A stretch of 64,000 nt of DNA from an uncultured Acidobacteriota bacterium (GTDB taxonomy: Bacteria; Acidobacteriota; Thermoanaerobaculia; Gp7-AA8), in the NCBI GenBank assembly GCA_963821585.1, contig CAWGEI010000003.1, positions 3,832,407-3,896,406 of the forward strand. The letters are read 5' to 3'. The notes under the pieces were generated by a model, which saw only the letters and a program-made list of their open reading frames with translations, did not search any database and was not told the origin of the DNA. This document shows, piece by piece, positions 7,641 through 49,361 of this stretch. A program made the translations under genes and the position numbers. Every line of letters starts with the position of its first letter. Within the stretch, counting starts at the first letter, position 1.

Positions 7641-7716
7641 TGCGCGTCCCGGCCGGCGAGGCGCCGGCGGAACGGCCGGCGGGGCGCCGGCACCACAGGG
7701 CCGGCGTCCCTACCGT

Positions 7717-8600
7717 GATTTGAATTTCGCGGTCAGATAGTCGCGGTTCATTCTGGCGATGAAGCTGACCGAGAATCTCCTTGGGGCAGACGGCTTCGCA
7801 TTCGCGGAAGAGGGTGCCGCTGCCGAAGTAGCTCTCCATGACTTCGACCATCTTCACGACGCGCTCGTACCGCTCGGGCTGGCCCTGGGGGAGGAGGCCG
7901 AGGTGGGAGACTTTGGCGGCGGTGAAGAGCTGGGCGGCCCCGTTGGGGCATTGGGCGACGCAGGCGCCGCACTGGATGCACTCGGCGGCGTCCATGGACA
8001 GTTCCTGGACCTGCTTGGGGATGGGGAGGGTGTTGGCTTCGACGGCGCTGCCGGTGTTGACGGAGATGTAGCCGCCGGCCTGGATGATCTTGTCGAGCGG
8101 GGTGCGGTCGACGATGAGGTCTTTGATGACCGGGAAGGCGCGGGCGCGCCAGGGCTCGAAGCTGCTGGCCGGTTTGTCCGCGCGCGTAGAACGTGCGCGA
8201 GACCTGCACGCCGCCGAACGAGCGGTTCTCCAGCGCGCCGCCGTATTCACGCGCCAGCGGCACGCCCTGGGCGAGGCCTGGTCGATGATGTTCACCGAGA
8301 GCTCGGCGAGACGATGGACGTTGCTCTCGCGGGAGCGGTAGTCGCCGCCTTTGATGGTGTCGTAGAAGAGGCGGTAGATCGAGTCGCCGTCGTTGCGGTA
8401 GTTCTTCGCCGCGTTGATGCCGCCCTGCGCGGCGATGGAGTGCGCGCGCCGCGGCGAGTCGTGGTAGACGAAGCACTTGACGTTGTAGCCGAGCTCCCCG
8501 AGGGTCGCGGCCGCTAGGATCGACTTGTCCGTCGTGACCAGCGTCCGCCCCTCGGCCACGGACTGCGCGATGAGAATGCGATCGAAGGGGTCGTCGTGAT
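7717..8600 (-). pseudogene. chimeric gene-remnant patch: vapC-like C-terminal fragment joined to an sdhA 5' fragment joined to the sdhB 3' half
   Basis: Roughly 8524-8595 encodes [22 protein letters not shown], the VapC C-terminal motif. Roughly 8150-8520 is about 90% nt-identical to sdhA at 15140-15500 ([17 protein letters not shown]...[26 protein letters not shown]) and shares the same 1-nt deletion after IIDQ. Roughly 7717-8140 matches the sdhB 3' half (CIQCGACV...CPKEI). The junction is at a gcggccgc sequence. Confidence 0.65.
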
Positions 8601-8626
8601 GGCGTGGCAGGGATGGGTGCACCGAT

Positions 8627-11600
8627 CTAGTGCGCTTCGTGGATCTCGCGCTCGATCCAGTCGAGGTCCCAGAAACGCAACGAGCCATCCTGCGCCCCGG
8701 AAGCGACCAGATTCCCGTGAACGGCGAGGGCACTCAATGGCGAGTCATGCGCAACCCAGCGACCCCACTCCACGCCGGTCGCGGCATTCCAGACGACGAT
8801 AGTCGATTCGCTCCCGGCGACGAGCCAACGCCCTTCTCGTGACGCGGCCAACAGGGTGATCCGACAGACAGGGCTCTTGACCCATTCCCGCGTCTCGCCG
8901 GTGGTCATGTCGGTTGCCAGGATGGAACAGAGACGAGCGGAAAAGAGCAATCGGCTATCGGCGGCGAAAACCCAGGGGCTGTTCACACAAGTCGTGGTCT
9001 TGATCGAAGGCACGAGAGCTCCGGTCGTTGCATCCCAGGCAGTGAAGCCGCACCCAGTCCGTGACTGTCCGTCGATGACGAGCAATTTGCTATCGGGGCT
9101 GAAGAGCGCGGTCTCCCGACCCGTCGTCGGCCACTCCGGTTCTGTCAGCGACGCCAATTGTTTGCCGGCGTCCAAATCGACAAGGTCCAGAAGGAGCCCG
9201 CCACCTGACAATCTTCCGCCGCCAGGCGTTTCAACAACTGGAGACCATACGTACGCCGCTCTTTTCCCGTTCGGACTCACAACGGCACCCCGAGCAGCCG
9301 CGATCGCGCGGTCATGGATGCTCGTCGTCGAAACGCCTTTCAGCCTGCTGTCGTCAGGAGTCGGAACAGCGATAGGACGTTCTTCGCGCCAAAGCTGGAG
9401 CCACTGGTCCTTTGCATTCGCGGGTCCCGAAATCGCCGCGCTCCACATTGTTCCCTGAGCATCGAACCAAGCGCGACAGCCAGGGAGAGATTTCTGGAAC
9501 TCCGGATTCCGCCCCGTCGCGAGAGCAGGCCGCACGTTCCAGATGGCGGCGGAGTCATAGCTCTGACTGGAAATGAATTTTGTTCCCTCCGGATTGAACG
9601 AAAGTGTGGTGGGCGGCTCTGCGCTGAAGAAAGCCGGGGCAGGTGGGGTGATTCTCCAAACTAACACGTGTGAGTTGCCGGTCGATAACTCAGCATGATC
9701 GTCACTCACTGTTAGATTGCTCCAAACACCATCCACGTTATCCGGATCCGTCACTTCACCTCCGCCGATCGTTGCGAGGAGCCTTCCGTCCGGGCTCCAA
9801 ACAGGCAGAGAATTCCCCGGAAGAGTGGCCACGAGGTCCCCGTTGCGGGCCCAGATCCGAACTTCTCCTTTCGTACCGACCTTGACCAGTGCCGCGAACA
9901 AGCTTCCATCGGAACTGAAGGACGCCGCCGTCGCGTTGAGAGTATGGGCGAGGAGGATGGCAGGTGGCGGCAGGGAGATTCGCACCTCTCGCAGAAAGGG
10001 CTCACCGGATACGAGCCGATAAAGCCGGAAGCTGTTCGTCCGCTTCTCCAGAATGGCGAACGCTCGCCCGTCGGGGCAGAGAAAAGACCAGCTATCGGGC
10101 TCGAGCTCCGTCGAAGCGATCGCACGATTGTTGGGAATGTCCCAAAGAAGGGCCATCGCGGCGGTACGAGGTCGACTCTCCATCTGGAGGAGTGCGACGT
10201 CACCGTTGCGGCTGAGGGCGCGAAACTCTGCGCTGGCAGGGCCTATGGTCCTCACCTTTTGAGTCACCACATCAACCTGTGCCAGACGTTCACCGCGATC
10301 GACCGTGAGATACGAGCCATTCGCCAGAAATGCCACGAGCTCGCCGTCGATTAGACGCGCATCGTGACTCGCCGTATCCACGATCTCGGAGCATCCTGAG
10401 GTCGCAACGTACCTGCGATCAGGACTCATGAGAGCGGCGGATCGCCGATCGTAGTAGCCGACACAGACCTCGTTGTGCACTGGAACGCGGGCGAGCTCCT
10501 TACCCGTGCGTGCTTCCCACAATACGACGGTCGAGCCTTCCCGCTCGCGGCGCTGCACGGAGACCACCTGTGATCCGGTACCGACGAAAGTCGGTTCCGG
10601 GCCCAGACTGCTCAAATCATCAGACGCGGTCAACTCTCCGAGCCAACGTCGAGAATCCGTATCCCAGACTCTCGTTCCGGTGCGCTCGGGCTTGCGCGTG
10701 TAGTCTCTACCCTTGATGACCAGCAGGCGGGAGTCCGCGCTGAACTGGTACCCGTGGACTGAGCCGAAAGGAATCCTGGACACCAATCGCGCACCCGGCG
10801 TGATCGCCATCTGGATCATCTCCTGGCGAAGCTCGCCGTCATTGCGGATTCTCGCCGCCCGGCGGAGCGCGTCCACCTCTCCAGCCTTGTCTCCGGCTGC
10901 GCGCTGCAATCGCGCCTGCTGCAGCAGAGATTGAAAGAGACGGCTGCGAAAGGCCACCGTGGAAGCGATCGTGAGCATCGCCACCACCACGAGCGCAGCG
11001 ATGGCCGTCGTTTGCCAGGGATGCCTCCTGCACCAGCGCCAGACCCGTACCGCCATTCCGATCCGCCGGGCGACGATCGGCTCTCCTCGCAGGAAGCGCC
11101 CGAGGTCGTCGGCCAACGCCTGCGCGGTCTGATAGCGACGCTGTGGATCTTTCCGAAGGGCGGCGAGACAGATCGTCTCCAAATCGCGACTCATCCCCTG
11201 ACGCAACTGTCGCGGCATCACAGGCTCGGCGTGAAGCACCTGCTGGACCGTTTCCAGCGGCGTCGGTCCCTGAAACGGCGGGCGCCCGACGAGGAGCTCG
11301 TAGAGAATGACGCCGAGGGCATAGACGTCGGTCGTTGGCCCGAGATTCTTCCCCCCTTCCGCCTGCTCGGGGGCCATGTAGCTCGGGGTTCCAAGCAGTG
11401 TCCCTGTAGCGGTCAGGCTCGAATGGCGATCGATGGCCCGGGCCAGGCCGAAGTCGGTGATGTGCAGTTGTCCGGCGCGGTCGAACAGGACGTTCGCCGG
11501 CTTCAGGTCGCGGTGAATGATCCCTTTGTCATGCGCGTACTGGATGGTCGCGGCGAGGGTCCGCACGTGTGCGGCCGCCACTTTCTCTTCCAGCGGCTTC

Positions 11601-12028
11601 CGTGCTGCCATCCCCGCCAGGCTGTCGCCCTCGATGTAGTCCATCGAGAAGTAGTGAAGGCCGTCCTGCTCTCCGATTTCATGAATGGCGACGATGTTCG
11701 GATGTTGCAAGCTGGCGGCAGCCGTGGCTTCGGCTCGGAAACGCTGCACCTCTTCGTCGGTAGCCACGATGCCGGGCTGCATCATTTTCACCGCGACGAT
11801 GCGGCCGAGGCTGAGCTGTCGCGCCTTGTAGACGACGCCCATCCCGCCGCGGGCAATCTCTTCCAGAAGCTCGTAGTCGCCGAAGTAGTGAAGCCTGGGG
11901 ACGAAGGACAAAACGTCTTTGGCTTCTCCTTCCGCGGCGAGACGCAGTAGACATGCCGGGCAGAGCCCGCGCGGGGCGTCGCTCCTCAGGTCGGCGCCGC
12001 AGTGATGACATCGTTGTGCACTGGTCAT
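8627..12028 (-). CDS. Ser/Thr protein kinase with N-terminal zinc ribbon and C-terminal WD40/beta-propeller repeats
   Basis: [12 protein letters not shown], then Hanks kinase motifs ([30 protein letters not shown]), a TM segment and a long WD40-like C-terminus. GGAG RBS before the ATG at 12028. Confidence 0.85.
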
Positions 12029-12091
12029 GGATTCGCTCCGCGGCCCCACGAGGCCGTTCCCACGCTCTTCTAAAGCAAAGGAGCGAGCTTG

Positions 12092-12823
12092 TTACACAGT
12101 GGACAGCAGATGACGGATCTCCGCTTCGACCGCCTCCGGATCATCGGGGTGTGGGAGCGTCTCCCTGATCTCCGCTCGAACCAGCTCGCGAAAGCGGGCG
12201 CGCATGCGATGGACGGCCACGCGCAGGGCTCCCTCGCTCATTTTCAGAGTCTGGCTGGCCTGGCTATACCGGACATCCCCATCGCCGATCATGAACGTTT
12301 TCAGCGTCTCGAAGAGGTGTGCTTTGCCGGCGGTCTCAAACTCCCCCGCCATGCGCTCCGTAGCGCGATGGAGAAGAGTGAGGGCCCACGTGCGCTCGTA
12401 GAAACTCTCGGGAGTCCATTCCGGCCGCGGTCCCGCCGTCCCGTATTGTGCTTCGAAGCTCTCGATCTCGTCGAGGCTGAGAAAAGAAGTGTCGGCCCCT
12501 CGCTTCTGCGATGTCCGGCGATCCCACTCATTCGCCAGGAAATTCTTTACGGAGGCCAGCAAGAATGAGCGGAATCTGCCACGCCCCGGATCGGCTCGAC
12601 GGAGAGACTGTTTCTCGAGAAGGCGCGTAAAGAAACCCTGGGTGAGATCTTGCGCATCGTCTCGCGAGAAACCGCGGTGTCGAACGTAATGGTAAATCGG
12701 ATGCCAATACGCCCGGCAGAGCGCGGCGAGCGCCTCGGCACCGACCAGATCGTCCTTCGCCGCGGCGAGCACGAGGCTCCAGCGCGTAGTGGTAAACCGT
12801 GCGTTCTCTTCCAGAGCCGGCAT
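12092..12823 (-). CDS. ECF-type RNA polymerase sigma factor (the class associated with Ser/Thr kinases)
   Basis: Sigma-70 regions 2 and 4 are recognisable ([20 protein letters not shown]... and [22 protein letters not shown]). It sits directly upstream of, and is co-oriented with, the WD40 kinase. Confidence 0.8.
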
Positions 12824-12863
12824 GACGGATGCGACGATTGTACGTCTCTCGCGATGGCGGGTT

Positions 12864-12960
12864 TAGAGTGCGGAGGCAATCTTCCGCTTTCGTATTCGGT
12901 CGCCTCGGCGCGAAAGGCAAACGAATAGGAAAGCGGAGGCGATTGCCTCCGCACTCCATA
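12864..12960. repeat. MITE-like element, family A (copy 1)
   Basis: Terminal inverted repeats gagtgcggaggcaatc...gattgcctccgcactccata, each arm carrying an internal hairpin. It lies between the sdhB stop and the ECF sigma start. Related copies are at 22827-22938 and 30581-30690. Confidence 0.7.
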
Positions 12961-12964
12961 AGCG

Positions 12965-13711
12965 TTAACGCGAGCGCGACTTCGCCACGAGGTAGTCGCG
13001 GTTCATTCTTGCGATGAAGCTCACCGAGATCTCCTTCGGGCAGACGGCTTCGCATTCGCGGAAGAGCGTGCAGCTGCCGAAGTAGCTCTCCATGACTTCG
13101 ACCATCTTCACGACGCGCTCGTAGCGCTCGGGCTGGCCCTGGGGCAACAGGCCGAGGTGGGAGACTTTGGCGGCGGTGAAGAGCTGGGCGGCGCCGTTGG
13201 GGCATTGCGGCGACGCAGGCGCCGCACTGGATGCACTCGGCGGCGTCCATGGCCAGTTCCTGGACCTGCTTGGGGATGGGGAGGGTGTTGGCTTCGACGG
13301 CGCTGCCGGTGTTGACGGAGATGTAGCCGCCGGCCTGGATGATCTTGTCGAGGGGGGTGCGGTCGACGATGAGGTCTTTGATGACCGGGAAGGCGCGGGC
13401 GCGCCACGGTTCGATAGCCACCGTCTCGCCGTCGCTGAAGTGGCGCATGTGGAGCTGGCAGGTGGCGGTGCCGCCGATCGGGGCCGTGGGCGACGCCGTT
13501 GATCATCATGCCGCACGAGCCGCAGATGCCTTCGCGGCAGTCGTGCTCGAAGTGGATCGGCTCCTCGCCCTTCTCGATGAGGTCGCTCGTTCACGACGTC
13601 GAGCATCTCCAGGAACGAAGCGTCGGGAGAGATGTTCTCGGCCTTGTACTCGACCAGGCGGCCTTCGGTGTCGCGGGATTTCTGCCGCCAGACGTGCAAA
13701 GTCAGATTCAT
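12965..13711 (-). pseudogene. sdhB: succinate dehydrogenase/fumarate reductase iron-sulfur subunit with at least four frameshifts
   Basis: N-terminus MNLTLHVWRQKSRDTEGRLVEYKAE, then [10 protein letters not shown] in a second frame, CIQCGACV in a third, and CPNGAAQLF...CPKEI back in the first frame. The cause is either pseudogenisation or local indel errors. Confidence 0.7.
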
Positions 13712-15635
<1,924 letters not shown>

Positions 15636-15640
15636 TCCGT

Positions 15641-16321
15641 TCACCTGACCAGTCCGAGGAGCACGCTCAGCGGGAAGGAGAGGTTGCCGGCCGTGATCAC
15701 CACCGCGAAGATGGTGGCGAATCCGCGGCGCCAGGCCTCGAACCGTTTGTGGGTCACGCCGAGCGAGCAGAACATCGCCTCGAGGCCATGGTAGAGGTGC
15801 AGGCCGAGGGCGAGGTTCGCGAGGATGTAGAAGGCCGAGATCCACCAGACCTGAAAGCCGGTGACGACGTTGTGGTAGACGTCGCCGTGGATGAAGGTGT
15901 CGCGCTGGACCCATCCCAGGGTCAGGTGGAGGAGGTGGTAGATGATGAAGAGCAGGATGATCACCCCGCCCCAGCGCATGGTCCGTGACGCGTAGCTGGC
16001 CTTGACGAAGTCGCGGTCGCGATAGGCGATCGGGCGGGCGGCGCGGTTCATCATGGTGAGCGCGAAGGCGGAGTGGATGTGGAAGATGACCGCGACGAGG
16101 AGCACGACGCGCGTGATCCACAGCACCCCTTCCCTCGGGAAGAAGGGCATGAGCAGGGTCCGGAGCGCCTCGGCGTACTCGTTGAGGTGGACGGCGCCGA
16201 GGTAGAGCTTCAGGTTGCCGATCATGTGGGTCAGGACGAATCCGAAGAGGATCAGCCCGGTCACGGCCATGACCGCCTTCTTGCCGACGGCGGAACGGTA
16301 GAGATTTGCCAACCACGTCAT
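15641..16321 (-). CDS. sdhC: succinate dehydrogenase cytochrome b558 subunit (Bacillus-type SdhC, five TM helices)
   Basis: [36 protein letters not shown]...[13 protein letters not shown]...[20 protein letters not shown]. The stop lies 5 nt before the sdhA ATG. Confidence 0.8.
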
Positions 16322-20693: not shown

Positions 20694-20710
20694 GCGGAGC
20701 GCCGTATGAA

Positions 20711-20770
20711 TGTAGGGCGTGGCTTCAGCCCGCCCTCCCCGTGGGGGGCGGGCTGAAGCCACGCCCTACA
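20711..20770. repeat. palindromic stem-loop element, family B (copy 1)
   Basis: tgtagggcgtggcttcagcccgcc-ctccccgtgggg-ggcgggctgaagccacgccctaca. Intergenic between the kinase and the regulator. Confidence 0.8.
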
Positions 20771-20796
20771 TTGCAACGCTCCGCTGGAGCGCAGCC

Positions 20797-38595: not shown

Positions 38596-40503
38596 ATGCA
38601 GCCCGGCGAGATTCTCGACAACCGTTACGAGATCGTGAGGCAGCTGGGGGCGGGTGGCATGGGCGAGGTCTATCTCGCCACGCACACCCACCTCGGCAGC
38701 TCGCGCGTGATCAAAGTCGTCCACCCGCACATTTCCGGGAACACGGACGCCCGCGACCGCTTTCTCCGCGAGGCGCGCGCGGCGACGAAGGTCCATCACC
38801 CGAACGTCGCGACCCTGCACGACTTCTCCACGCTCGCCAACGGCGCGCACTACATGGTGTGGGAGTACATCGACGGCGAGAACCTCGCGCAGAAGCTGCG
38901 CTCGCGGGGCACGCTGCCCCCTCAGGAGGCCGTGCGGCTGGTGAGCCAGGCGCTGCACGGGCTGGAGGCCATCCATCGCGCGGGGATCATCCACCGCGAC
39001 ATCAGTCCCGAGAACCTGATGATCGCGCGCGAAGACGAATCGGTGAAGATCATCGACCTCGGCGTGGCCAAGGTCGAGGACTCCGAGGTGTCGCAGACCC
39101 GCACGGGCATCTTCGTCGGCAAGCTGCGCTACGCGGCGCCGGAGCAGCTCGGGTTCATGCCCGAGGACGAGAAGATCGACGCGCGGGCGGACGTGTATGC
39201 GACGGCGATGGTGCTGGTCGAGCTGCTGACCGGGCGTCCGCCGTACGAGGCGAAGTCGCCGCACGAGTATTTCATCCTCCACGCCAGCCAGGCGCCGATG
39301 AAATCCGTCGAGCTGCCGGCGGAGCTGCCGGGCAGCGCTGCGCTGCAGGCGGTGCTGGCGAAGGCCCTGGCGCGGAACCGCAACGACCGCTACACGACCG
39401 CGCGGGAGTTCGCGCTGGCGCTGGAGGAGATCGAGCGGACGCTGCCGGATCCTCGCGAGATGGCCACGATGGCCATGCCGTACGACGGCGACGAGACGAT
39501 GAAGCTGGGACGGAAGACCGTCGACACGCTGCACCGTTCGACCGTGATGTCGGGCGCGCAAGCGGCACCAGCTCCGCCGACCCTGGCGACGCCGCTGCCG
39601 GCCGCGATCCCCGCACCGCCGCAGCCGCCCGCTTCGCCACAGCCGGCGGCTCCGCCGACGGTGCTGACCCCGTTCCCGCAGCAACAGTTCGCGCAGCAGG
39701 CGCCGAAACAGGGCTCGATGCTGCCGCTGCTGATCGTCGTCGGCGTCCTGCTGCTGTTCGCGGGCGCCGCGGCGTTCGCGATGTACAAGTTCTGGCCGTT
39801 CGGGAAGCAGCAGGTCGCGGAGACGCCGACCACCACCCAGCCTGTTGTGACAACCACGACGCAGGCTCCGCCGAAGGCCTCGGAATCGACATTGACGGTG
39901 ACGTCGCCGGCGACGGAGACGGTGGTCACGACCACCACTGCCGCTCCCCCACCCCTGATCGTCGAGAACACGCAGACCACAGCCACGGCGCCGGTGCTGT
40001 CGTCGCCGGTGGTGAAACCGCCAGTGACGAAGCCGCCGGTGGTGGTCGTAGAGAAGCCAAAGCCTCCCGTAAAGGAAGACGAAGAAGAAGAAGCCGCACC
40101 CGAGGAGGAACCCGAACGGAGCGGCGGCTTCGGCGCGCCGACGTACGTCGACGGCGGCGATGACGACTACCGCAACGAGCGGGCCCTCACCGCGCTGCGC
40201 CGCGCCCTGCGCGGGACAAACGTCGTCGCCCTGCGCGCCGGCGGGATGACCCCGGAGCTCGCACGCGCGCTGCGCGAAGAGTTCCCCGACCTCCGCTTCG
40301 AGGCCGAGGCCGACGTCGTCATCCGCTTCGAAGGAAAGTTCGAGCGCCGCCCCCGCGCGTTGAAACGCCGGGCCGCGACGGCCACGGTGTCGAAGAACGG
40401 CCGCGTGATCTTCCGCTACCAGCTCCCCGACGAGGTGTACCGCGTAGGGATGTCGCCGGCGGAGTCGTTCGCGCGCGTGCTGGCCAATGCCATGAACGAA
40501 TGA
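38596..40503 (+). CDS. Ser/Thr protein kinase with a Pro-rich linker, TM segment and extracytoplasmic C-terminal domain
   Basis: Hanks motifs GAGGMGEVYLA, HRDISPENLM, DLGVAK, APEQ. A PAPP-rich linker, TM segment LPLLIVVGVLLLFAGAAAFAMY and a C-terminal domain of about 230 aa. Confidence 0.85.
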   Translation: MQPGEILDNRYEIVRQLGAGGMGEVYLATHTHLGSSRVIKVVHPHISGNTDARDRFLREARAATKVHHPNVATLHDFSTLANGAHYMVWEYIDGENLAQKLRSRGTLPPQEAVRLVSQALHGLEAIHRAGIIHRDISPENLMIAREDESVKIIDLGVAKVEDSEVSQTRTGIFVGKLRYAAPEQLGFMPEDEKIDARADVYATAMVLVELLTGRPPYEAKSPHEYFILHASQAPMKSVELPAELPGSAALQAVLAKALARNRNDRYTTAREFALALEEIERTLPDPREMATMAMPYDGDETMKLGRKTVDTLHRSTVMSGAQAAPAPPTLATPLPAAIPAPPQPPASPQPAAPPTVLTPFPQQQFAQQAPKQGSMLPLLIVVGVLLLFAGAAAFAMYKFWPFGKQQVAETPTTTQPVVTTTTQAPPKASESTLTVTSPATETVVTTTTAAPPPLIVENTQTTATAPVLSSPVVKPPVTKPPVVVVEKPKPPVKEDEEEEAAPEEEPERSGGFGAPTYVDGGDDDYRNERALTALRRALRGTNVVALRAGGMTPELARALREEFPDLRFEAEADVVIRFEGKFERRPRALKRRAATATVSKNGRVIFRYQLPDEVYRVGMSPAESFARVLANAMNE

Positions 40504-40562
40504 TGTAGGGCGTGGCTTCAGCCCGCCTCCCCGGGCAGGGCGGGCTGAAGCCACGCCCTACG
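40504..40562. repeat. palindromic stem-loop element, family B (copy 2)
   Basis: tgtagggcgtggcttcagcccgcc-tccccgggcagg-gcgggctgaagccacgccctacg, immediately after the kinase stop. Confidence 0.8.
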
Positions 40563-40818
40563 TGGCGTCCCGCCGCCCCCCGGGTGTGCCTTTCCGTCGA
40601 CGTGTCGTCCTCGGCCGGCTCCTCCTGCTTCCGTGCCCCTGCGGATTTCTGCATGGAGTTCCGTATCGTATCGAATGCATCCCATTTGCAACGATTTACA
40701 CTTTGCGACACAAAATTCTCTTGACCCTCATAGATCACAGGAGTACATTTAGGATCGCATGAGGCACGACGCCAAGGATCGATCCGGACAGCGTCCATTT
40801 CGAAAGAGACGACGTCTC

Positions 40819-41049
40819 TTCCGATGGAGACGATCCTGCCTTCGAAGGGGACGATTGAACTTTCGATGGAGACGATCGTGCCTTCGATGGAGACGATCGC
40901 GCCTTCGATGGAGACGATCGTGCCTTCGATGGAGACGATTTAGCCTTCGATGGAGACGATTTAGCTTTCCTTGGAGACGATTCAGCTTTCGATGGGGACG
41001 ATTGAGCTTTCGGAAGGGACGGTGTCCTCTTCGGAAGGGACGATGCCCG
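40819..41049. repeat. 21-bp tandem repeat array, about 11 degenerate units of CTTCGATGGAGACGATCGTGC
   Basis: Two overlapping frames stay open across it: a minus-strand (K/R)SSPSKA-repeat ORF (40735..41130) and a plus-strand RWRRSCL-repeat ORF (40759..41142). The G/C-rich third-position frame is broken by stops. Coding status is unresolved. Confidence 0.6.
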
Positions 41050-41159
41050 GTTCTTTGTGGACGTCGTCCGGAACCGCGAGGCCGCGCGCCGCCCGGGCTC
41101 CGCTCCCTGCGCCGCGCTCATCCACACCACATAAATGAATGAAAGGAGACCTAGTTATG

Positions 41160-41666
41160 GCAGATGCAACAGTAGTCTCACCCTACACGGAAGAAGCGAA
41201 GGTGCTGGTCGGATTGATCCACGCGGTTCGCGAACAGGTTCCGCGATTCACCCCGGAAGCGCCCGGCGAGGCCAGAGCCATGGCGGCGAAGGCCTCGGTC
41301 AGCGAGCAGTTCCTCGAGGCGGCCAGCGCCTCGATCCAGAAGTCGCCGGCCCTGGAGGCCATCTCCGGCACGCGTCCCGAGATCCTGCGCGACGCGTCCG
41401 CATTCGCGCTGGCCCAGCAGGCCGCGCTGACCGAGGCCGAGTCCCTGGTGCGCGCGATCGCCCATACGATCCGCGCCGCCAAAGCCGCGGCCGGAGAGAG
41501 CGCCCTCGACATCTACGCGATCGCCCAGCGCGTCGCGAAACGGAAAGACGGCGCCGAGCTCGTGCCGCATGTGAAAGACATGCGGCGCAAGCTCAACCTC
41601 GGACGTCGGAAGGCGAATTCAGAGCCCGCTTCCGACCCGTCCGTGAAACCGGCGCCGAAGGCGTAG
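41160..41666 (+). CDS. hypothetical Ala-rich protein
   Basis: AAAGGAGA RBS 8 nt before the ATG (MADATVV). Helical, Ala-rich, basic C-terminal tail. No family recognised. Confidence 0.5.
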   Translation, partial: ADATVVSPYTEEAKVLVGLIHAVREQVPRFTPEAPGEARAMAAKASVSEQFLEAASASIQKSPALEAISGTRPEILRDASAFALAQQAALTEAESLVRAIAHTIRAAKAAAGESALDIYAIAQRVAKRKDGAELVPHVKDMRRKLNLGRRKANSEPASDPSVKPAPKA

Positions 41667-41740
41667 TGTAGCAGCGCAAGTGGGTGGCGGGGAGTCCGAT
41701 CCTCCCCGCCACGGTCGCGCGAGGAGAGAAGAGCGGCGCT

Positions 41741-41923
41741 TCAGGAGATCTTACGGTGAACGACGGCGGGAGATTTCGGCTCTCCCTTCACCACTCTGCC
41801 TGAATTCTGCCGTTCGATATCCTGCAGATAAACGAAGAGAGCCTCGAGATCCCCGCCGAACTCGGCATCCAGCTGTCGCCGCGCTTCACGAGTCTCTTCG
41901 ACAATCGGATCTTCCATGATCAA
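41741..41923 (-). CDS. small protein downstream of the PIN toxin gene (possible antitoxin or partner)
   Basis: 60 aa, MIMEDPIVEETREARRQLDAEFGGDLEALFVYLQDIE. Its start overlaps the PIN gene stop by 4 nt. Confidence 0.35.
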   Translation of the reverse strand: MIMEDPIVEETREARRQLDAEFGGDLEALFVYLQDIERQNSGRVVKGEPKSPAVVHRKIS

Positions 41924-42381
41924 CCGTCCATGAACTCCTGCGGAGTATAGATCAACGGCGGTTCGAACCCATGACTCCGACAGATCGCGTTAACGCGCGG
42001 GATGGTCACCGCATTCGCGATGTGCGTGCAGTTCCACGTCAGAAGGTAGTCCAGCCCGTTCACCGCGGCCGTCGCGATGTGCAGCGCATCTTCGTTCGCT
42101 TTTCTCGGGACACCTGCTCCTGCCACCAAAGCAGCGGCAAGGTCGACAGCTTCGCGTGTCACTGGTGCAAGCCTGAGCTCTCGCGTTACGGCAAGACGTT
42201 GAGCGGCAACGACGGCGTCACCGCGTTGGGCTTCGCCCAACACGACAGCGGAGACATAGCACTCGAAGTCCTGGCGTCGCGTCTGCCACCATTGCTGCGT
42301 GAGCTCCTGATTCGACGCGACGCGAGGGTTCCTGCTGGGCCGAGCAACCAGGTAGCTGATAACACTCGTTTCGACGTACAC
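41920..42381 (-). CDS. PIN-domain (VapC-like) ribonuclease toxin
   Basis: VYVETSVISYL N-terminus and the C-terminal motif EDALHIATAAVNGLDYLLTWNCTHI. The ORF track extends upstream out-of-gene. The start was chosen at a GTG. Confidence 0.55.
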   Translation of the reverse strand: MYVETSVISYLVARPSRNPRVASNQELTQQWWQTRRQDFECYVSAVVLGEAQRGDAVVAAQRLAVTRELRLAPVTREAVDLAAALVAGAGVPRKANEDALHIATAAVNGLDYLLTWNCTHIANAVTIPRVNAICRSHGFEPPLIYTPQEFMDG

Positions 42382-42553
42382 CGTGGAAAGCACGAACAAC
42401 GCTAACTGATCGTGGCCTGGGAAAGGAAGTGAATAGACACCGGCAACAGCCACCGACAACTTGCGTGACCATGCTGCAAATCGAGCGATCGAGGCACTGT
42501 CGATATACTTTGTCAGGCGTCGCAAGCCACTGCCCTTTCGCCCCGGAGGTTCC

Positions 42554-42973
42554 ATGGCTGAACTGAAGACGAAGCAGACGGAAGCAAGCGTTGAGAAGTA
42601 TCTCGACACCATCGAGGACCCAAGACGCCGGGCAGACTGCGAGGCGATCTCCGCGCTCTTGAAGAAGGTCACGAAATTCGAGCCCAGGATGTGGGGGCCA
42701 AGCATCGTCGGCTTCGGCAGCTACCATTACCGGTACGAGACCGGCCACGAAGGCGACGCCGCTCTCGTCGGGTTCTCGTCCAGAAAACCAGAGATTGTTC
42801 TCTACATCGCAGATGCATTTGAATCACGCGAGGAGCTCCTGCAGCAGTTGGGAAAGCACAGGACCGGGAAGGTCTGCCTCTACATCAAACGGCTTTCCGA
42901 CATAGACGTCGGAGTGCTCGAGAAACTCATCAAAGCGTCCGTGGCAGAGGTACGTAGACAATATCCGTCGTGA
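42554..42973 (+). CDS. DUF1801 (YdhG-like) domain protein
   Basis: GGAGG RBS. MAELKTKQTEASVEKYLDTIEDPRRRADCEAISALL...MWGPSIVGFGSYHYRYETGHEGD...FSSRKPEIVLYI is a DUF1801 signature. Confidence 0.75.
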   Translation: MAELKTKQTEASVEKYLDTIEDPRRRADCEAISALLKKVTKFEPRMWGPSIVGFGSYHYRYETGHEGDAALVGFSSRKPEIVLYIADAFESREELLQQLGKHRTGKVCLYIKRLSDIDVGVLEKLIKASVAEVRRQYPS

Positions 42974-43009
42974 GGGCGGCGCCCGGCTCCCCCGAAAGGA
43001 ACATCCGTA

Positions 43010-43606
43010 ATGTCGAAAGTTGTCGCAATCATGTCCATGTCGCTCGACGGCTACGTCGCCGACCCCAACGATGGCGTGGCCGAAGTGTTCGACTGGTACT
43101 TCAACTCGGGCGACGTCGAATTCCACACCGGAGGGTCGGACCCCATGACGTTCAAGGTCTCCGGGCCGAGCGCCGAGCACCTTCGCGGTCTCACGTCCGG
43201 ACTCGGTGCCATGCTCACCGGCCGGCGCACCTTCGACGTCGCCCAGGGCTGGGGCGGCAATCACGCCTGGGGACCAGCCTTCGTCCTCACCCACCACATC
43301 CCCGCCGGATGGCCGCGCCCCAACTCCACCGTCCACTTTGTGACCGACGGCCTCGAAAGCGCCGTGAGCCAGGCCAAAGCCGCAGCCGCCGGGAAGTCTG
43401 TTGGAGTCCACGGCGCGGACACCATCCAGCAGTTGCTGAATGCCGGTCTCCTCGACGAAATCCACGTCGACATCGCGGCCGTTATCCTTGGCTCCGGCGT
43501 TCGACTCTTCGACCACCTCGCCGGCACGCCGGCCGTCCTTGGCAATCCGACGGTGATCCCGGGCGTCGGCGTTACCCACCTGCGCTACCCGGTACGTAAG
43601 GGGTAG
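43010..43606 (+). CDS. dihydrofolate reductase-like (RibD C-terminal domain) family protein
   Basis: VVAIMSMSLDGYVADPNDG...LTGRRTF...GNHAWGPAFVLTHH...VHGADTIQQLLNAGLLDEIHVDIAAVILGSG. Confidence 0.8.
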   Translation: MSKVVAIMSMSLDGYVADPNDGVAEVFDWYFNSGDVEFHTGGSDPMTFKVSGPSAEHLRGLTSGLGAMLTGRRTFDVAQGWGGNHAWGPAFVLTHHIPAGWPRPNSTVHFVTDGLESAVSQAKAAAAGKSVGVHGADTIQQLLNAGLLDEIHVDIAAVILGSGVRLFDHLAGTPAVLGNPTVIPGVGVTHLRYPVRKG

Positions 43607-43644
43607 TCCTGCCCCGCCACCGTTGCCGAGCCGGCCGTGGATTC

Positions 43645-43858
43645 ATGGCGATCGAGTCACGCAGCCGACGATCACTGGCTTACTGTACGGCCCTGCGAAA
43701 GGCGGGAGTTCACACGGAAATGCATCTGTATGGGAATGGCGGGTATGCATTCGGCCTGCGGCGCACCGGAGATGGTCGAGGACTGGCTGAAAGCGATCGC
43801 GATGATTGAGAGTAGGATTTCAGAGGGAGCATCTGACACACCTAGGTACTGCCGATGA
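43645..43858 (+). pseudogene. C-terminal remnant of an alpha/beta-hydrolase fold-3 (HSL-type esterase/lipase) gene
   Basis: Encodes only ...SLAYCTALRKAGVHTEMHLYGNGGYAFGL, then in a shifted frame EMVEDWLKAIAMIE. The N-terminal roughly 250 aa are absent. Confidence 0.4.
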
Positions 43859-44005
43859 GCACGCCCTCGAGCCCATCACGAAGTGGCCTGATCGCCAGCC
43901 GCAGCCACGAAAACTCCAGCCTCGTGATCTCCACTCCGGCACGTTCAGCGCACTGCCGGATTCCGCCAGGCCGAGCGAAGGCCAGGCTCCCCAACTCATC
44001 AATCC

Positions 44006-44842
44006 TTGGTGAGGCATAATCTGTTCGTGCTCAACAACGCTGACACTCCGGAACCACCCGGGAAGCAGGTTTTCCTAAGCTACCGACGACGTGTATCGGC
44101 ATTTGTGGCTCGATCGATCTATCAAAATCTGACTGCGTCCGGCTTCAACGTTTTTATGGATGTTGAAAAGGTCGATTCCGGTCGTTTCGAGAACGTCATT
44201 CTGAACGAGCTCGGTTGTCGCCCACATTTCATCGTCATTCTTGAGCCCGATAGCGTCCAAGGATGGCTGGATCCCGCCGATTGGTTGCGTCGTGCAATCG
44301 AGCGCTCCATCCAGCTTGAACGGAACGTCATTCCGCTCCTCGTCAATGGTTTTCAGTTTACGGAAGTGGCGGACTATCTTGTCGGGGATCTGCCAAAGCT
44401 ACGAGAGTACAACCCGTTGACGATTCCTCACGATTATTTCGACGCAGCGATGGAACTGTTGAAGACGCGTTTTCTACAACAGCCAACGCAACAGGAGCTG
44501 CGAATCAAGACCGCCGAAGAGTGGTTTCAAACGGCCGAACAACTTCGCGCGAACAATAACTTACCAGGGGCCGAACAAGCATATACTAAAGCTATCGAAC
44601 TGAACCCCGCGATGTCAGAAGCATTTTGTAATCGGGCAGTCATGCGTGCCCATCTACGCGACTACACAGGGGCGATGCGTGATTTTGATCATGCGATTTC
44701 GCTGGATCCAACAAGTTGGCAACTCTACAGAAACCGAGGGGATCTGAAGCAAACCCTCGGCGATGTACGTGGCGCAATCGAGGGCTATCAGCGGGGGTTT
44801 AACGGCGGCAGGACTCGCAAAGAATTGCTCGAAGACTACTAG
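44006..44842 (+). CDS. bacterial TIR-domain (TIR_2) protein fused to C-terminal TPR repeats
   Basis: KQVFLSYRRRVSAFVARSIYQNLTASGFNVFMD...RPHFIVILEPDSVQGWLDPADWLRRAIE is a TIR_2-like domain. C-terminal TPRs AEQAYTKAIELNPAMSEAFCNRAVMRAHLRDYTGAMRDFDHAISLDP. Visibly AT-richer codon usage than its neighbours. Confidence 0.7.
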   Translation: MVRHNLFVLNNADTPEPPGKQVFLSYRRRVSAFVARSIYQNLTASGFNVFMDVEKVDSGRFENVILNELGCRPHFIVILEPDSVQGWLDPADWLRRAIERSIQLERNVIPLLVNGFQFTEVADYLVGDLPKLREYNPLTIPHDYFDAAMELLKTRFLQQPTQQELRIKTAEEWFQTAEQLRANNNLPGAEQAYTKAIELNPAMSEAFCNRAVMRAHLRDYTGAMRDFDHAISLDPTSWQLYRNRGDLKQTLGDVRGAIEGYQRGFNGGRTRKELLEDY

Positions 44843-44922
44843 GTAATTATATCGGTAGGGCTTGCCGGCCTAACTTGGCGCGAAGCTGCCGCGGTCCGGC
44901 TTCGACTCGGCAGCCGAGCTGC

Positions 44923-45180
44923 CTACGTCTTCGCCAGCGTCACGAGATACCTATCCAGGATGCTCTTCGCTTCGGTCTGTCGCGCGATCATGTGACGATA
45001 GAGTGGCGACAGGCGCAACCGTCCGGGAGTCATTCCATTGCGGAGCGTCGTCAGGCACGCCTCAGCACCGATTACGCTTTTGGTCAGCCGAACAACTAAT
45101 TCGCGAAGCGCGCGAAGGTCGGACCCAGGCGGCCCGATCCCTTCAACATCCGTTGCCGCGAGAATACGTTCTAAGAGCAT
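44923..45180 (-). CDS. hypothetical small helical protein downstream of the TIR_2 gene
   Basis: 85 aa. Contains R-x6-H (RLSPLYRH), a weak HEPN-like hint only. AT-richer composition. Confidence 0.35.
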   Translation of the reverse strand: MLLERILAATDVEGIGPPGSDLRALRELVVRLTKSVIGAEACLTTLRNGMTPGRLRLSPLYRHMIARQTEAKSILDRYLVTLAKT

Positions 45181-45244
45181 TTTGTGTCGACGTAACTCGC
45201 GCCGGGCCGCGGCCTCGGCTTTTACGACATGTCGGCTGTTGCGA

Positions 45245-45874
45245 TCAGCTCTCGTGATCGTGCGAACAGAATGTCTCTAGGACGACCTTTGGCGCATCGA
45301 TTGACTTGGCGAGATCGGAGCAGAGGGTGAAGAGCTCCGTACGAATAGTCGGACTCGTCTCGGCGGAATTGGAGAGCCGCGAAACGACGCCAAAGTCTTC
45401 CTCGCGCTTTATCGGCCGAAGTACAGGTGATTGCTGAAGTAGAGCCGCTTTAAGTTGTGCCAAGGAATCCTTGAATCGCTCGTCATTGCGAAAATCAACA
45501 TAGAGGCGGCTCGCTACGAACGATGGTACCTGCGTTCCCGCGCGCAGAACAGGAATGTGGCAATCCACCGCATCGCCGTTCAGAACGCGTGATGACAGTA
45601 TGCTGCTTTCGTAGCCGACTCCTCCATGCCGCTGTTCTGACTTGCTGACGTATGGGGGCGTGACCACGATGACTATCCGGTCGCAACGGAGGCCCTCTTC
45701 CATGAAGTGCGTCAGGTCGCGGCCACCGTGTAGATCGTATTCGTCAAAGACGACATGGAACGTCGCATCCTCTTCGAGCGAGTTCGCCAACGCCGTCACC
45801 CACGAGGTGTGCTCATCGGAGTCTCGCGAATAAGAAATGAATATCGTAAGCACAACGCACCATTCGGGGTTCAC
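45245..45874 (-). CDS. stand-alone bacterial TIR-domain (TIR_2) protein
   Basis: TIFISYSRDSDEHTSWVTALANSLEEDATFHVVFDEYDL.GG.DLTHFMEEGLRCDRIVIVVTPPYVSKSE is a TIR_2-like alpha/beta core. AT-richer composition. Convergent with the TIR-TPR gene. Confidence 0.65.
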   Translation of the reverse strand: MNPEWCVVLTIFISYSRDSDEHTSWVTALANSLEEDATFHVVFDEYDLHGGRDLTHFMEEGLRCDRIVIVVTPPYVSKSEQRHGGVGYESSILSSRVLNGDAVDCHIPVLRAGTQVPSFVASRLYVDFRNDERFKDSLAQLKAALLQQSPVLRPIKREEDFGVVSRLSNSAETSPTIRTELFTLCSDLAKSIDAPKVVLETFCSHDHES

Positions 45875-45955
45875 TCCAGAATAGCAGAGGGAACACGCCC
45901 CTAACTCATCACAACTAACTCGCCGAAGCTGATGCGGCTCGGCTTCGGTACGGCG

Positions 45956-46291
45956 TTAGTCGTACAACTCCAGGACCACACGATCAACATCCGCAATGAA
46001 CTCTTCGATCACGGACACGTTCTGACGCAGCAGCCGTTCCACGGCGGCGCTGCTGCAGTTGCCGAGGCGCAGCCATACGACTTTCGGGGGTGCACCACGA
46101 AGGATTGCGAGCTCCGCAAAGTCGTTGTCTTTGGACACGATCACGAGGCCGTGCGTGCGGGCGTGGAACCAGATCTCAGGGTCGGCAGCACGGGCAAAGC
46201 CGAGCAGGCGCGTTTGGGTACTGCCGGGATAGAGATCTGCAAGTCGCGCAACGAGTTTGTGCGACAGGTTGTGGTCGAGCAGCAGCTTCAC
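45956..46291 (-). CDS. DUF5615 (PIN-like) family protein, putative toxin of a DUF433/DUF5615 pair
   Basis: MKLLLDHNLSHKLVARL...GLVIVSKDNDFAEL...PPKVVWLRLGNCS is a DUF5615 signature. 4-nt overlap with the upstream DUF433 gene. Confidence 0.75.
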   Translation of the reverse strand: MKLLLDHNLSHKLVARLADLYPGSTQTRLLGFARAADPEIWFHARTHGLVIVSKDNDFAELAILRGAPPKVVWLRLGNCSSAAVERLLRQNVSVIEEFIADVDRVVLELYD

Positions 46292-46512
46292 CCGTGAGAG
46301 ACCTTCGTCTTCCGTTCACGATCCGCGGCGTACGCGAGACAGGCACGGATGTCGTCCTGCGTGAGATCCGGGAAATCGGACAAGATCTCTTCCTCGGTCA
46401 TCCCTGAAGCGAGATACGACAGGACGTCGTATACCGTGATGCGAATGCCGCGAATGCACGGCTGCCCACCCCGCTTTCCGGGCTCGACGGTGATGATGTC
46501 TTCGTAGTTCAC
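46288..46512 (-). CDS. DUF433 domain protein, putative antitoxin partner
   Basis: ITVEPGKRGGQPCIRGIRITVYDVLSYLASGMTEEEILSDFPDLTQDDIRACLAYAA is a DUF433 signature. Confidence 0.8.
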   Translation of the reverse strand: MNYEDIITVEPGKRGGQPCIRGIRITVYDVLSYLASGMTEEEILSDFPDLTQDDIRACLAYAADRERKTKVSHG

Positions 46513-46684
46513 CTGTTCATCTTAGCAGGACGGAACGGAGCGGACCTGGTGCGTCAGGTGGGACGCGTGACACGCAACACAGCCCGCCGGTGCACGCGCG
46601 CAGCGTCAGACTGGGATCCGCGTGAGGGACACTGCGGTGGTGCCCGAACCTCAAAAGTATCGCGAGAACGTGTAACGTACCGAG

Positions 46685-47059
46685 TTGATCCCGAGCTTGC
46701 TTTTCACATCGCGATCTACACGTGAAGCATCCGATCGACATGTTGATCTTTCGGTACAGATACGCCTCAGGACCGCTCTTCGTCAGGAAGGAGCGCAGAC
46801 CTTCGTCGGCTCGCTTTACGAATTACTCGACGCTCATGCTTTGACTATTGTCGGGGGCGGTGACGAGCGATGGCGGATCGTCATCGGTCCTGGATCACCG
46901 GATTCGTCCGTGACTGAAGAACGTCGGCATCTCGTGGCAACATGGCTCCAGACCCGCGCGGAGGTGATCGCTTCTCACGTGGGTGTGGTTCGGACTGCGA
47001 CGGTGGGCGAGAGGGAGATGTTCGAAGATAGCTCGTTCCAAGACGAGGAAGATGAGTGA
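46685..47059 (+). CDS. hypothetical protein (acidic C-terminus)
   Basis: TTG-start ORF only. Mixed codon usage. No family recognised. Confidence 0.3.
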   Translation: MIPSLLFTSRSTREASDRHVDLSVQIRLRTALRQEGAQTFVGSLYELLDAHALTIVGGGDERWRIVIGPGSPDSSVTEERRHLVATWLQTRAEVIASHVGVVRTATVGEREMFEDSSFQDEEDE

Positions 47060-47106
47060 TCCCAGAGCGGTGGCTCCCCTCCACCAGCCGCCTCGCCACC
47101 GCACTC

Positions 47107-49161: not shown

Positions 49162-49274
49162 CTGGCAGCCGAAAGAGTTGCGCGCCCCCTCGCGACCCGG
49201 CGGCCGTTCCGCAGGGCCACCGGCCCGCAGGGTGCCGGCGGAACGGCCGGCTGGAAGCCGGCACTACAAACAAA

Positions 49275-49350
49275 CGTAGGGCGTGGCTTCAGCCCGCCCG
49301 CCCCGCCCGAGGGGCGGGCTGAAGCCGAGGGCTGAAGCCGCGCCCTACGT
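49275..49350. repeat. palindromic stem-loop element, family B (copy 3, with an internal 12-bp duplication)
   Basis: acgtagggcgtggcttcagcccgcc-cgccccgcccgagg-ggcgggctgaagccgagggctgaagccgcgccctacgt. Confidence 0.8.
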
Positions 49351-49361
49351 TTTGTAGCTGC

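Follow-up and report, generated by a model that had tools for sequence, protein, structure and literature searches.

Type B succinate:quinone oxidoreductases and fumarate reductases, such as SdhCAB of Bacillus subtilis with its single dihaem cytochrome b558, are encoded in the order sdhC-sdhA-sdhB. The same order is found in the window analyzed here, a 64,000-nucleotide stretch of DNA from an uncultured Thermoanaerobaculia bacterium. There, sdhC (15641 to 16321) encodes an intact, 226-amino-acid membrane subunit of the cytochrome b558 type and is followed, on the same minus strand, by the flavoprotein gene sdhA (13708 to 15635) and the iron-sulfur subunit gene sdhB (12965 to 13711). Unlike in described type B operons, however, sdhA and sdhB as deposited are broken by 20 single-base indels, while the sdhC frame is uninterrupted. 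We counted 17 of these indels in sdhA, 14 insertions and 3 deletions, and 3 in sdhB, all insertions (13583, 13478, and 13208). When the indels are removed, sdhA is full length at 637/638 codons, with one in-frame AAT insertion near its stop codon, and sdhB has 247 codons; neither frame contains an internal stop codon. SdhC matched TIGR02046 end to end at 187 bits (cutoff, 96), and the corrected proteins likewise matched their families in full and above the curated cutoffs: SdhA matched TIGR01811/NF005749 (1,178 bits against a cutoff of 866 for NF005749), and SdhB matched NF005746 (412 bits against a cutoff of 243). Corrected SdhB retains all three cysteine clusters, one of them CREGICGSC, and both corrected proteins are 93 to 98% identical to intact Thermoanaerobaculia orthologues. 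The dN/dS ratios after correction were 0.07 to 0.12 for sdhA and 0.065 to 0.13 for sdhB, compared to 0.084 to 0.09 between two intact orthologues. Directly past the sdhB stop codon, a GC-rich hairpin with a T-rich tail (GCGGAGGC-AATC-GCCTCCGC-TTTCC; 12928 to 12957, minus strand) reads as a probable operon terminator. Judged from its sequence, the locus is almost certainly the normal, functional type B sdhC-sdhA-sdhB operon of this bacterium.

The form of the indels is informative. Indels were called from alignments to four intact orthologues, L003 (JGI), L002 (GCA_964558905.1), L084 (GCA_036375075.1, a short-read k141 assembly), and L085 (Logan SRR23047315), with three-frame translation used as well. 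The initial annotation had reported at least ten single-base indels in sdhA and sdhB, and the comparison to intact orthologues brings the count to 20, namely, 17 insertions and 3 deletions, each of 1 nt and all within positions 13208 to 15374. None of the 20 is present in any of the four orthologues, and none falls in sdhC. As the initial annotation also stated, sdhC, a kinase gene (1,134 amino acids), and gdh (1,608 amino acids) are intact; their frames, and that of a sigma factor gene, are open and gave full-length domain or family matches. Moreover, a GC3 frame plot and long single-frame tblastx matches indicated no frame switching in the other genes of the window; an apparent second frameshifted zone in the GC3 plot at 40.5 to 46 kb consists of lower-GC, short accessory open reading frames and not of broken genes. 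Scans of the whole window for tRNAs and Rfam families gave no matches.

By simulation, the insertions do not behave as random events, though the P values are individually moderate (0.001 to 0.03). Fifteen of 17 do not duplicate an adjacent base (random expectation, 8.5; P = 0.001), 12 place a different base beside the wobble base (P = 0.03), and 10 imply a synonymous single-nucleotide polymorphism (SNP) (P = 0.012). All three deletions remove a wobble base. Several doublets spell out two alleles that are each found elsewhere: G[A]TC combines GTC of L003 with ATC of L085, GT[C]C combines GTC of L003 with GCC of L085, C[G]TC combines CTC of L003 with GTC of L002, and CAG[C] combines CAG of L002 with CGC of a partial second copy of sdhAB in the window. 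Homopolymer error was rejected, as only 2 of the 17 insertions extend a run under strict placement. The contexts of the 20 indels shared no common motif by eye that would suggest methylation, nor did the 20 sites share a slippery motif that would suggest programmed frameshifting.

The partial second copy lies downstream of the kinase gene, where the initial annotation had described a 0.9-kb patch of sdhA and sdhB sequence. The patch is present (7710 to 8592), and its blastn matches to the full operon are direct repeats, with both copies on the minus strand. The sdhB' relic (7710 to 8159) comprises codons 99 to 247 and its own stop codon (TAG at 7712 to 7710), and the sdhA' relic (8158 to 8514) comprises codons 48 to 166; the 1,722 bp between sdhA codon 166 and sdhB codon 99 are absent. 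Positions 7735 to 8159 matched 12990 to 13414 at 96.0% identity (426 columns, 15 mismatches, 2 gaps), and positions 8158 to 8514 matched 15137 to 15494 at 93.9% (358 columns, 21 mismatches, 1 gap), such that the roughly 90% identity first given becomes 94 to 96%. Overall, the sdhB' relic is approximately 95.6 to 96.0% identical to resident sdhB, and the sdhA' relic is approximately 93.5 to 93.9% identical to resident sdhA and 94.4% identical to that of L003. The patch differs from the resident operon to the same degree as the sdhAB genes of other lineages do, and the differences fall mostly at third codon positions (14/22 and 20/28). Resident SdhA carries the lineage-specific replacements T51S, Y64F, S92C, L134F, and V150A, and the patch has the orthologue residue at each. 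The patch is in frame at NYQ|NDGD and CVA|QCPNG, where the full copy carries a +1, and the sdhB' relic has a +1 of its own (ATT|C TCG), where the full copy reads ATC. The relic also has a Cys213-to-Gly change at the first cysteine of the third cluster. A 1-nt deletion in SdhA had been described as common to both copies, in a motif that in fact reads NIIDQAVAQGVP, with Ala in place of Cys. Each copy is indeed one base short within a shared GCC|GTC codon pair, although the base that is lost differs (GC-GTC in the full copy and GCC-TC in the patch). Finally, the vapC-like 3' remnant of the initial annotation (approximately 8515 to 8592, minus strand) may be the end of a PIN-domain toxin gene, as it matched C-terminal profile positions 84 to 117 of the 120 in PF01850 with an E value of 0.023, below the cutoff.

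How 20 indels came to lie in an otherwise conserved operon is best explained, in our opinion, by the way in which the sequence was made. We think it very likely that the frameshifts come from a consensus computed from two sdhAB templates and that the operon is normal, with a relic and an exchanged cassette alongside. The source lineage is uncultured, and its representation by a single contig of 5,030,005 bp implies that long reads were assembled; doublets at wobble and allelic sites are the signature of one consensus made from two slightly different templates. Assembly or polishing would have drawn on two templates with scattered point substitutions and, at SNP sites, would have written out the two bases together (+1) or left both out (-1); either a co-occurring strain or another copy of the genes might have been the second template. 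We infer template mixing from the form of the errors, and on sequence grounds, the indels are most likely consensus errors, the outcome that the initial annotation had named as speaking against its own reading of decay. One lesion may be real, namely, the -1 that the full copy and the patch each carry within the GCC|GTC pair.

Consensus errors from collapsed strains are known in long-read metagenomes. Flye-type assemblers have been reported to collapse strains of approximately 98.7% identity into one consensus (PMC8302730). As in such cases, the contig here is multimegabase and the organism uncultured, and the damage takes the form of a short, indel-only stretch in which insertions represent both alleles of a SNP. 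We found no published description of SNPs that systematically become +1 or -1 calls. Against a mixture of templates, consensus callers normally choose one allele at a SNP and would hardly be expected to make an indel of every variable site, and the damage is limited to sdhAB, with sdhC and the neighboring sigma factor gene unaffected. Exact protein look-ups with the sigma factor, SdhC, the frameshifted open reading frames, and corrected SdhB matched only the source contig, where the exact SdhC is recorded, and one Logan contig; they found no independent sdhAB copy from the same organism, corrected SdhB itself having no record. The Logan contig L001 (ERR11593400, 1,135 bp) ends 7 nt past the sdhB stop codon, and L169 extends only 117 nt into sdhA. 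The closest SdhA among 5.8 billion proteins, searched with whole corrected SdhA and with a 214-amino-acid piece that spans seven indels, was 93% identical, and thus no intact gene of the same species is on record. A search of genome contigs with corrected SdhA listed only distant SdhA proteins (84% or less), and neither the source genome nor a second operon was among the matches listed.

Taken at face value, the 20 frame breaks of the deposited sequence could mean that sdhAB is a redundant paralog that has truly become a pseudogene, and the -1 at the same codon pair in both copies could be read the same way, as could the five replacements in resident SdhA, at which the patch has the residue of the orthologues. 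We nonetheless regard pseudogenization as very improbable. The dN/dS ratios are those of functional orthologues and there are no nonsense codons, whereas a gene old enough to have gathered 20 indels should show many unconstrained substitutions. Moreover, bacterial pseudogenes are subject to a deletion bias and to indels in homopolymer runs, and here insertions outnumber deletions 17 to 3, every event is 1 nt, and 15 of 17 insertions are not duplications of a neighbor. No mutational process would be directed at wobble positions or at sites known to be polymorphic, yet that is where the bases were inserted, and sdhC and the operon terminator are unaffected. Thus, the decaying redundant SDH/FRD paralog of the initial annotation is not borne out, as constraint is not relaxed, stop codons are absent, and corrected products match their families over their full lengths. 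Errors of sequencing need not involve two templates, and the stretch might instead hold residual random long-read errors from one template that went unpolished because of locally low coverage or of short-read mapping made ambiguous by the patch or a second copy. An unpolished long-read consensus typically carries errors that are all indels, about 1 per 110 bp; furthermore, the edges of the damaged zone fall inside the two segments of which the patch holds a second version (15137 to 15494 and 12990 to 13414). Random or homopolymer errors, however, would not favor wobble positions or mimic the alleles of relatives, and most of the zone (13415 to 15136) has no repeat within the window, which makes a single unpolished template unlikely.

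A related concern is that the patch might itself be an assembly chimera in which reads of two strains were misjoined. Consensus problems are evident at the locus, and the patch contains one +1 of the doublet type (ATT|C for ATC). The patch, however, has a diverged sdhB 3' end with its own stop codon, a Cys-to-Gly change, and two illegitimate joints, features that assemblers do not usually produce. Moreover, in L084, an independent short-read metagenome-assembled genome, the kinase gene is followed by the same 11 nt with which the PIN remnant begins (CCATCACGACG), and a 36-bp piece of sdhB is kept at the equivalent position (8529 to 8564 of L084). A chimera is therefore extremely unlikely. The third-position bias of the differences, the lineage-level divergence, and the eroded trace in L084 all agree with the initial annotation that the patch is a scar of recombination, and we conclude that the sdhA'-sdhB' fragment is a genuine old relic of DNA rearrangement.

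Between the operon and the relic lies a two-gene signaling cassette. In ECF43-type systems, ECF sigma factors are genomically paired with Ser/Thr kinases, and in the EcfP/PknT pair of Vibrio, phosphorylation of the sigma factor has reportedly been shown. Similarly, an intact, 243-amino-acid ECF-type sigma-70 family factor (12092 to 12823, minus strand; PF04542, E = 2.8e-6) is encoded here upstream of, and in the same orientation as, an intact Ser/Thr kinase of 1,134 amino acids (8627 to 12031, minus strand; PF00069, E = 1.6e-54), the C-terminal region of which matches WD40/beta-propeller families and is sensor-like. Sigma region 2 was detected by PF04542 with no separate region 4 match in Pfam, and residues 30 to 213 matched TIGR02937 (E = 7.8e-10) at a score of 38.6, below the cutoff of 42.9. 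The kinase gene directly follows the sigma gene here and in L084, L166, L167, and L168, and a kinase domain starts no more than 700 nt downstream at 43 of 55 loci with distant sigma homologues. In L085, the sigma gene occurs without the kinase and is followed by an intact fitA/vapC-type pair. A search of metagenome contigs with the sigma factor returned only distant homologues (57% or less), and the sigma gene of L001 is 100% identical to the one here.

Unlike ECF43-type pairs and EcfP/PknT, the pair here behaves as a laterally exchanged cassette. The dS values between the window and L084 were 0.028 for sigma and 0.058 for the kinase but 0.337 and 0.398 for the flanking sdhB and SnoaL genes, such that dS in the cassette is 6- to 14-fold below that of its neighbors. 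Sigma and kinase together share 96.9% nucleotide identity with L084, and the sigma gene alone is 98 to 99% identical to those of L084 and L085. L167 and L168 carry the same cassette in unrelated surroundings, and its copies elsewhere (L166 to L168) lack the sdh fragment. In the window, it starts just downstream of the probable sdhB terminator. No integrase-like open reading frame was found between 7.6 and 12.9 kb, and no att site was seen. The low dS and the other contexts uphold the acquired signaling module of the initial annotation, and we conclude that the sigma and kinase genes form a two-gene cassette that is exchanged laterally.

How the relic arose can be outlined conditionally. The relic would be the remainder of a second sdhAB copy that was made when DNA bearing the cassette recombined into the region. 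The most economical route would combine one homologous end with one illegitimate joint inside sdhA, or else would be a Campbell-type single crossover, and the internal 1.7-kb deletion would have come afterwards; we infer this order of events from the arrangement that is left. As in the scars left by a Campbell-type single crossover or by homology-facilitated illegitimate recombination, the cassette is bracketed by direct repeats of sdhA and sdhB sequence, a truncated, dead copy lies on the distal side, and dS in the cassette is far below that of its surroundings. In contrast to such scars, however, the relic is as diverged as the allele of another lineage, and neither an integrase nor an att site is seen. 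Perhaps the cassette circulates among Thermoanaerobaculia as a small mobile unit without a recombinase and lands beside sdhB because a piece of the highly conserved sdhAB genes moves with it as its homology anchor, in which case the relic would be its footprint and the two templates would be coexisting haplotypes derived from import, but we consider this scenario quite improbable.

We conclude that the locus is artefact plus ordinary biology. The real biology that remains is modest and consists of a low-dS ECF sigma-Ser/Thr kinase cassette and a dead sdhA'-sdhB' relic. When +1 and -1 frameshifts are clustered in a housekeeping gene that is otherwise perfectly conserved, and the metagenome-assembled genome was built from long reads, the consensus should be suspected rather than decay. 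No reads are needed to follow up such a suspicion: the questions are whether, at wobble positions, the inserted bases look like the other allele of a SNP and whether constraint, measured as dN/dS, is still unrelaxed once the frames are corrected. If the frameshifts were accepted as written, complex II would be recorded as absent from this genome, and the metabolic reconstruction of Thermoanaerobaculia would be distorted.

The genes of the sdh locus all lie on the minus strand. An intact sdhC (16321 to 15641) precedes sdhA (15635 to 13708), sdhB (13711 to 12965), a GC-rich hairpin, the gene for an ECF-type sigma factor (12823 to 12092), and a gene encoding a 1134-amino-acid Ser/Thr kinase with a C-terminal WD40/beta-propeller region (12031 to 8627). 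Downstream of the kinase are a 3' remnant of about 78 nt (8592 to 8515), a weak candidate for a PIN toxin that matches the C-terminal end of the PF01850 profile (E = 0.023), and a relic in which a fragment of sdhA (8514 to 8158) is joined to a 3' fragment of sdhB with its own stop codon (8159 to 7710). The layout drawn in the initial annotation is borne out, with corrections. The relic and the resident operon share two direct repeats (8158 to 8514 with 15137 to 15494 at 93.9%, and 7735 to 8159 with 12990 to 13414 at 96.0%), and codons 48 to 166 of sdhA are fused to codons 99 to 247 of sdhB with the intervening 1,722 bp missing.

The resident sdhA and sdhB are interrupted by frameshifts. The closest SdhA proteins were used to retrieve two loci with intact orthologs, L003 (JGI; 91.6% nucleotide identity) and L002 (GCA_964558905.1; 86.5%), and the 90% cluster of the sigma factor led to two closer relatives, L084 (short-read MAG GCA_036375075.1) and L085 (a Logan contig from SRR23047315). 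In the alignment to L003 and L002, single bases are inserted at 17 sites and deleted at 3, every one of them within 13208 to 15374, and sdhC has no indels. L084 and L085 each contain an intact sdhB together with the 3' portion of sdhA, and none of the indels is present in the part covered. Removal of the 20 indels restores both genes to full length without stop codons; their products are then 93 to 94% (SdhA) and 94 to 98% (SdhB) identical to the orthologs and match NCBIfam models over their whole length, with scores far beyond the cutoff. Moreover, dN/dS is 0.07 to 0.12 for sdhA and 0.065 to 0.13 for sdhB; the intact ortholog pair gives 0.09 and 0.084, respectively, when compared with each other. 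We also note that AAT is inserted in frame at the 3' end of sdhA (13712 to 13720), within the region of the ATGA overlap with sdhB, where the protein ends in RSYNK here and in RSYK in all four orthologs.

The form of the indels is distinctive. Nearly every insertion can be read as two different bases occupying one codon position (e.g., GCG|C, TCG|C, CTG|C, GTC|G, CCC|G, CGA|C, and GCC|G), and the base lost in each of the three deletions is a wobble base. When 17 random insertions were simulated in the corrected genes, the observed set exceeded expectation in not duplicating a neighboring base (15 of 17 versus 8.5; P = 0.001), in falling at wobble contacts (12 versus 7.6; P = 0.03), and in implying a synonymous SNP (10 versus 5.0; P = 0.012). 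The most telling insertions are the doublets outside the wobble position: G[A]TC at 13478 (GTC in L003, ATC in L085), GT[C]C at 14226 (GTC in L003, GCC in L085), C[G]TC at 14525 (CTC in L003, GTC in L002), and CAG[C] at 15374 (CAG in L002, CGC in the relic).

Judging from these patterns, the 20 indels are most probably an artifact of a consensus drawn from two templates. Where such templates differ by point substitutions, the consensus can keep both bases or drop both. We favor this explanation because the indels match codon positions and alleles, the source is long read, and frame switching is confined to this locus: the GC3 frame plot, tblastx, and inspection found none from broken genes among the other genes of the window. 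The source contig spans 5,030,005 bp of an uncultured Thermoanaerobaculia bacterium and is therefore of long-read origin, and long-read metagenome assemblers can merge similar strains into a single consensus (PMC8302730). Some different technical error is an improbable source of the indels, and genuine pseudogenization of sdhAB is slightly less probable still. A gene that had drifted as far as 20 frameshifts should also bear numerous substitutions free of constraint, as well as nonsense codons; sdhAB has none. Natural mutation, moreover, is blind to codon position and to the alleles of other lineages, and its spectrum is unlike one composed entirely of 1-nt events, with 17 insertions to 3 deletions and with insertions that rarely copy a neighbor. 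Thus, the decaying, heavily frameshifted operon proposed initially is most likely not real, given unrelaxed dN/dS, the lack of stops, and the indel form.

By comparison with orthologs, the relic was not copied recently from the resident operon. In its sdhA part, identity is 93.5% to the resident gene and 94.4% to L003; in its sdhB part, identity to the resident gene is 95.6%, with 95.8% for L085 sdhB over the same columns. Differences from the resident fall at third codon positions in 14 of 22 and 20 of 28 cases, and at most replacement sites in its sdhA part the relic, not the resident, keeps the ortholog residue; the relic therefore diverged when the gene it belonged to was still functional. 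The changes that inactivate it came afterwards: two illegitimate joints, a one-base deletion, a one-base insertion, and a Gly in place of Cys213 in the third Fe-S cluster motif. Resident SdhA has five conservative lineage-specific replacements within 15137 to 15635 (codons 51 to 150; T51S, Y64F, S92C, L134F, and V150A), sites at which the relic agrees with L003 and L002; these could be genuine lineage changes or further consensus noise. The relic itself is genuine DNA rather than an assembly chimera because L084, assembled from short reads, matches the window for 35 nt past the end of the kinase gene, among them the first 11 nt of the PIN remnant, and retains 36 bp of sdhB (TTTCGCGAATGCGAAGCGGTCTGCCCGAAGGAG...) at the corresponding position, flanked by a second kinase gene and an antitoxin gene. 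The duplicate fragment is real but ordinary.

The sigma-kinase cassette contrasts sharply with its flanks in synonymous divergence. Between the window and L084, dS is 0.028 for the sigma factor and 0.058 for the kinase but 0.337 for sdhB on one side and 0.398 for a SnoaL-like gene on the other; against L085, it is 0.034 for sigma and 0.189 for sdhB. Three other loci (L166, L167, and L168) carry the cassette over exactly the span from sigma start codon to kinase stop codon (86 to 93% nucleotide identity), and in L167 and L168 its neighbors are quite unlike those here. The dS contrast and these other contexts support the earlier suggestion of an acquired signaling module. In the simplest history, cassette-bearing DNA would have recombined into the sdh region and left a truncated second sdhAB copy, which a later 1.7-kb deletion would have cut down to the relic; we infer this order of events. 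Neither a recombinase nor an att site is present at the cassette locus. The position that follows the cassette is a variable insertion site: where the relic lies here, L084 (5680 to 8948) carries a second, convergent 915-amino-acid Ser/Thr kinase and a PhdYeFM antitoxin. In L085, a fitA/vapC-type pair follows the sigma factor in place of the kinase. This sigma family is commonly paired with a kinase: a kinase domain lies directly downstream in 43 of 55 distant homologs, and the pair presumably resembles known STK-associated ECF groups. The mobile pair, too, is real but ordinary.

Other features of the window include a repeat of roughly 62 bp that forms a hairpin (ATGTAGGGCGTGGCTTCAGCCCGCCC...GGGCGGGCTGAAGCCACGCCCTACAT), probably a REP-like or terminator element, in four intergenic copies (20709 to 20772, 40503 to 40563, 49272 to 49352, and 55986 to 56052). 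A lower-GC stretch of short accessory open reading frames (40500 to 47100) encodes two TIR-like proteins (44006 to 44842, plus strand; 45245 to 45874, minus strand) and a PIN-like DUF protein (45956 to 46291, minus strand) and is possibly a defense or toxin-antitoxin islet. Frame switching in the GC3 plot made it a candidate second frameshifted zone, which was rejected as inspection found no broken genes. A membrane-anchored Ser/Thr kinase of 635 amino acids (38596 to 40503, plus strand) and an intact NAD-specific glutamate dehydrogenase of 1608 amino acids with all Pfam GDH modules (49362 to 54188, minus strand) are also encoded.

The search for an independent sdhAB from the same species found none, and the sole contig from the same organism is L001, a 1,135-bp Logan contig from ERR11593400. 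L001 is 100% identical to the window over 11823 to 12957 and stops 7 nt beyond the end of sdhB, where the low-divergence cassette has its left edge. Its end could mark a branch in the assembly graph (e.g., a cassette-free variant or a second sdhB context) or a gap in coverage. A 63-bp insertion in the spacer between sdhB and the sigma gene (approximately 12881 to 12943), with GCCTCCGC direct repeats on both sides, is missing from L084 and L085 and is real, since L001 independently carries it. The damaged zone both starts and ends inside the two segments repeated in the relic. Such limits would agree with a population in which some members carry a second, undeleted copy whose reads are aligned in split form, and equally well with a co-occurring strain whose sdhAB haplotype is locally divergent. 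Ultimately, the case is chiefly useful as a recognizable pattern by which consensus errors in long-read MAGs can be flagged when the reads are unavailable.
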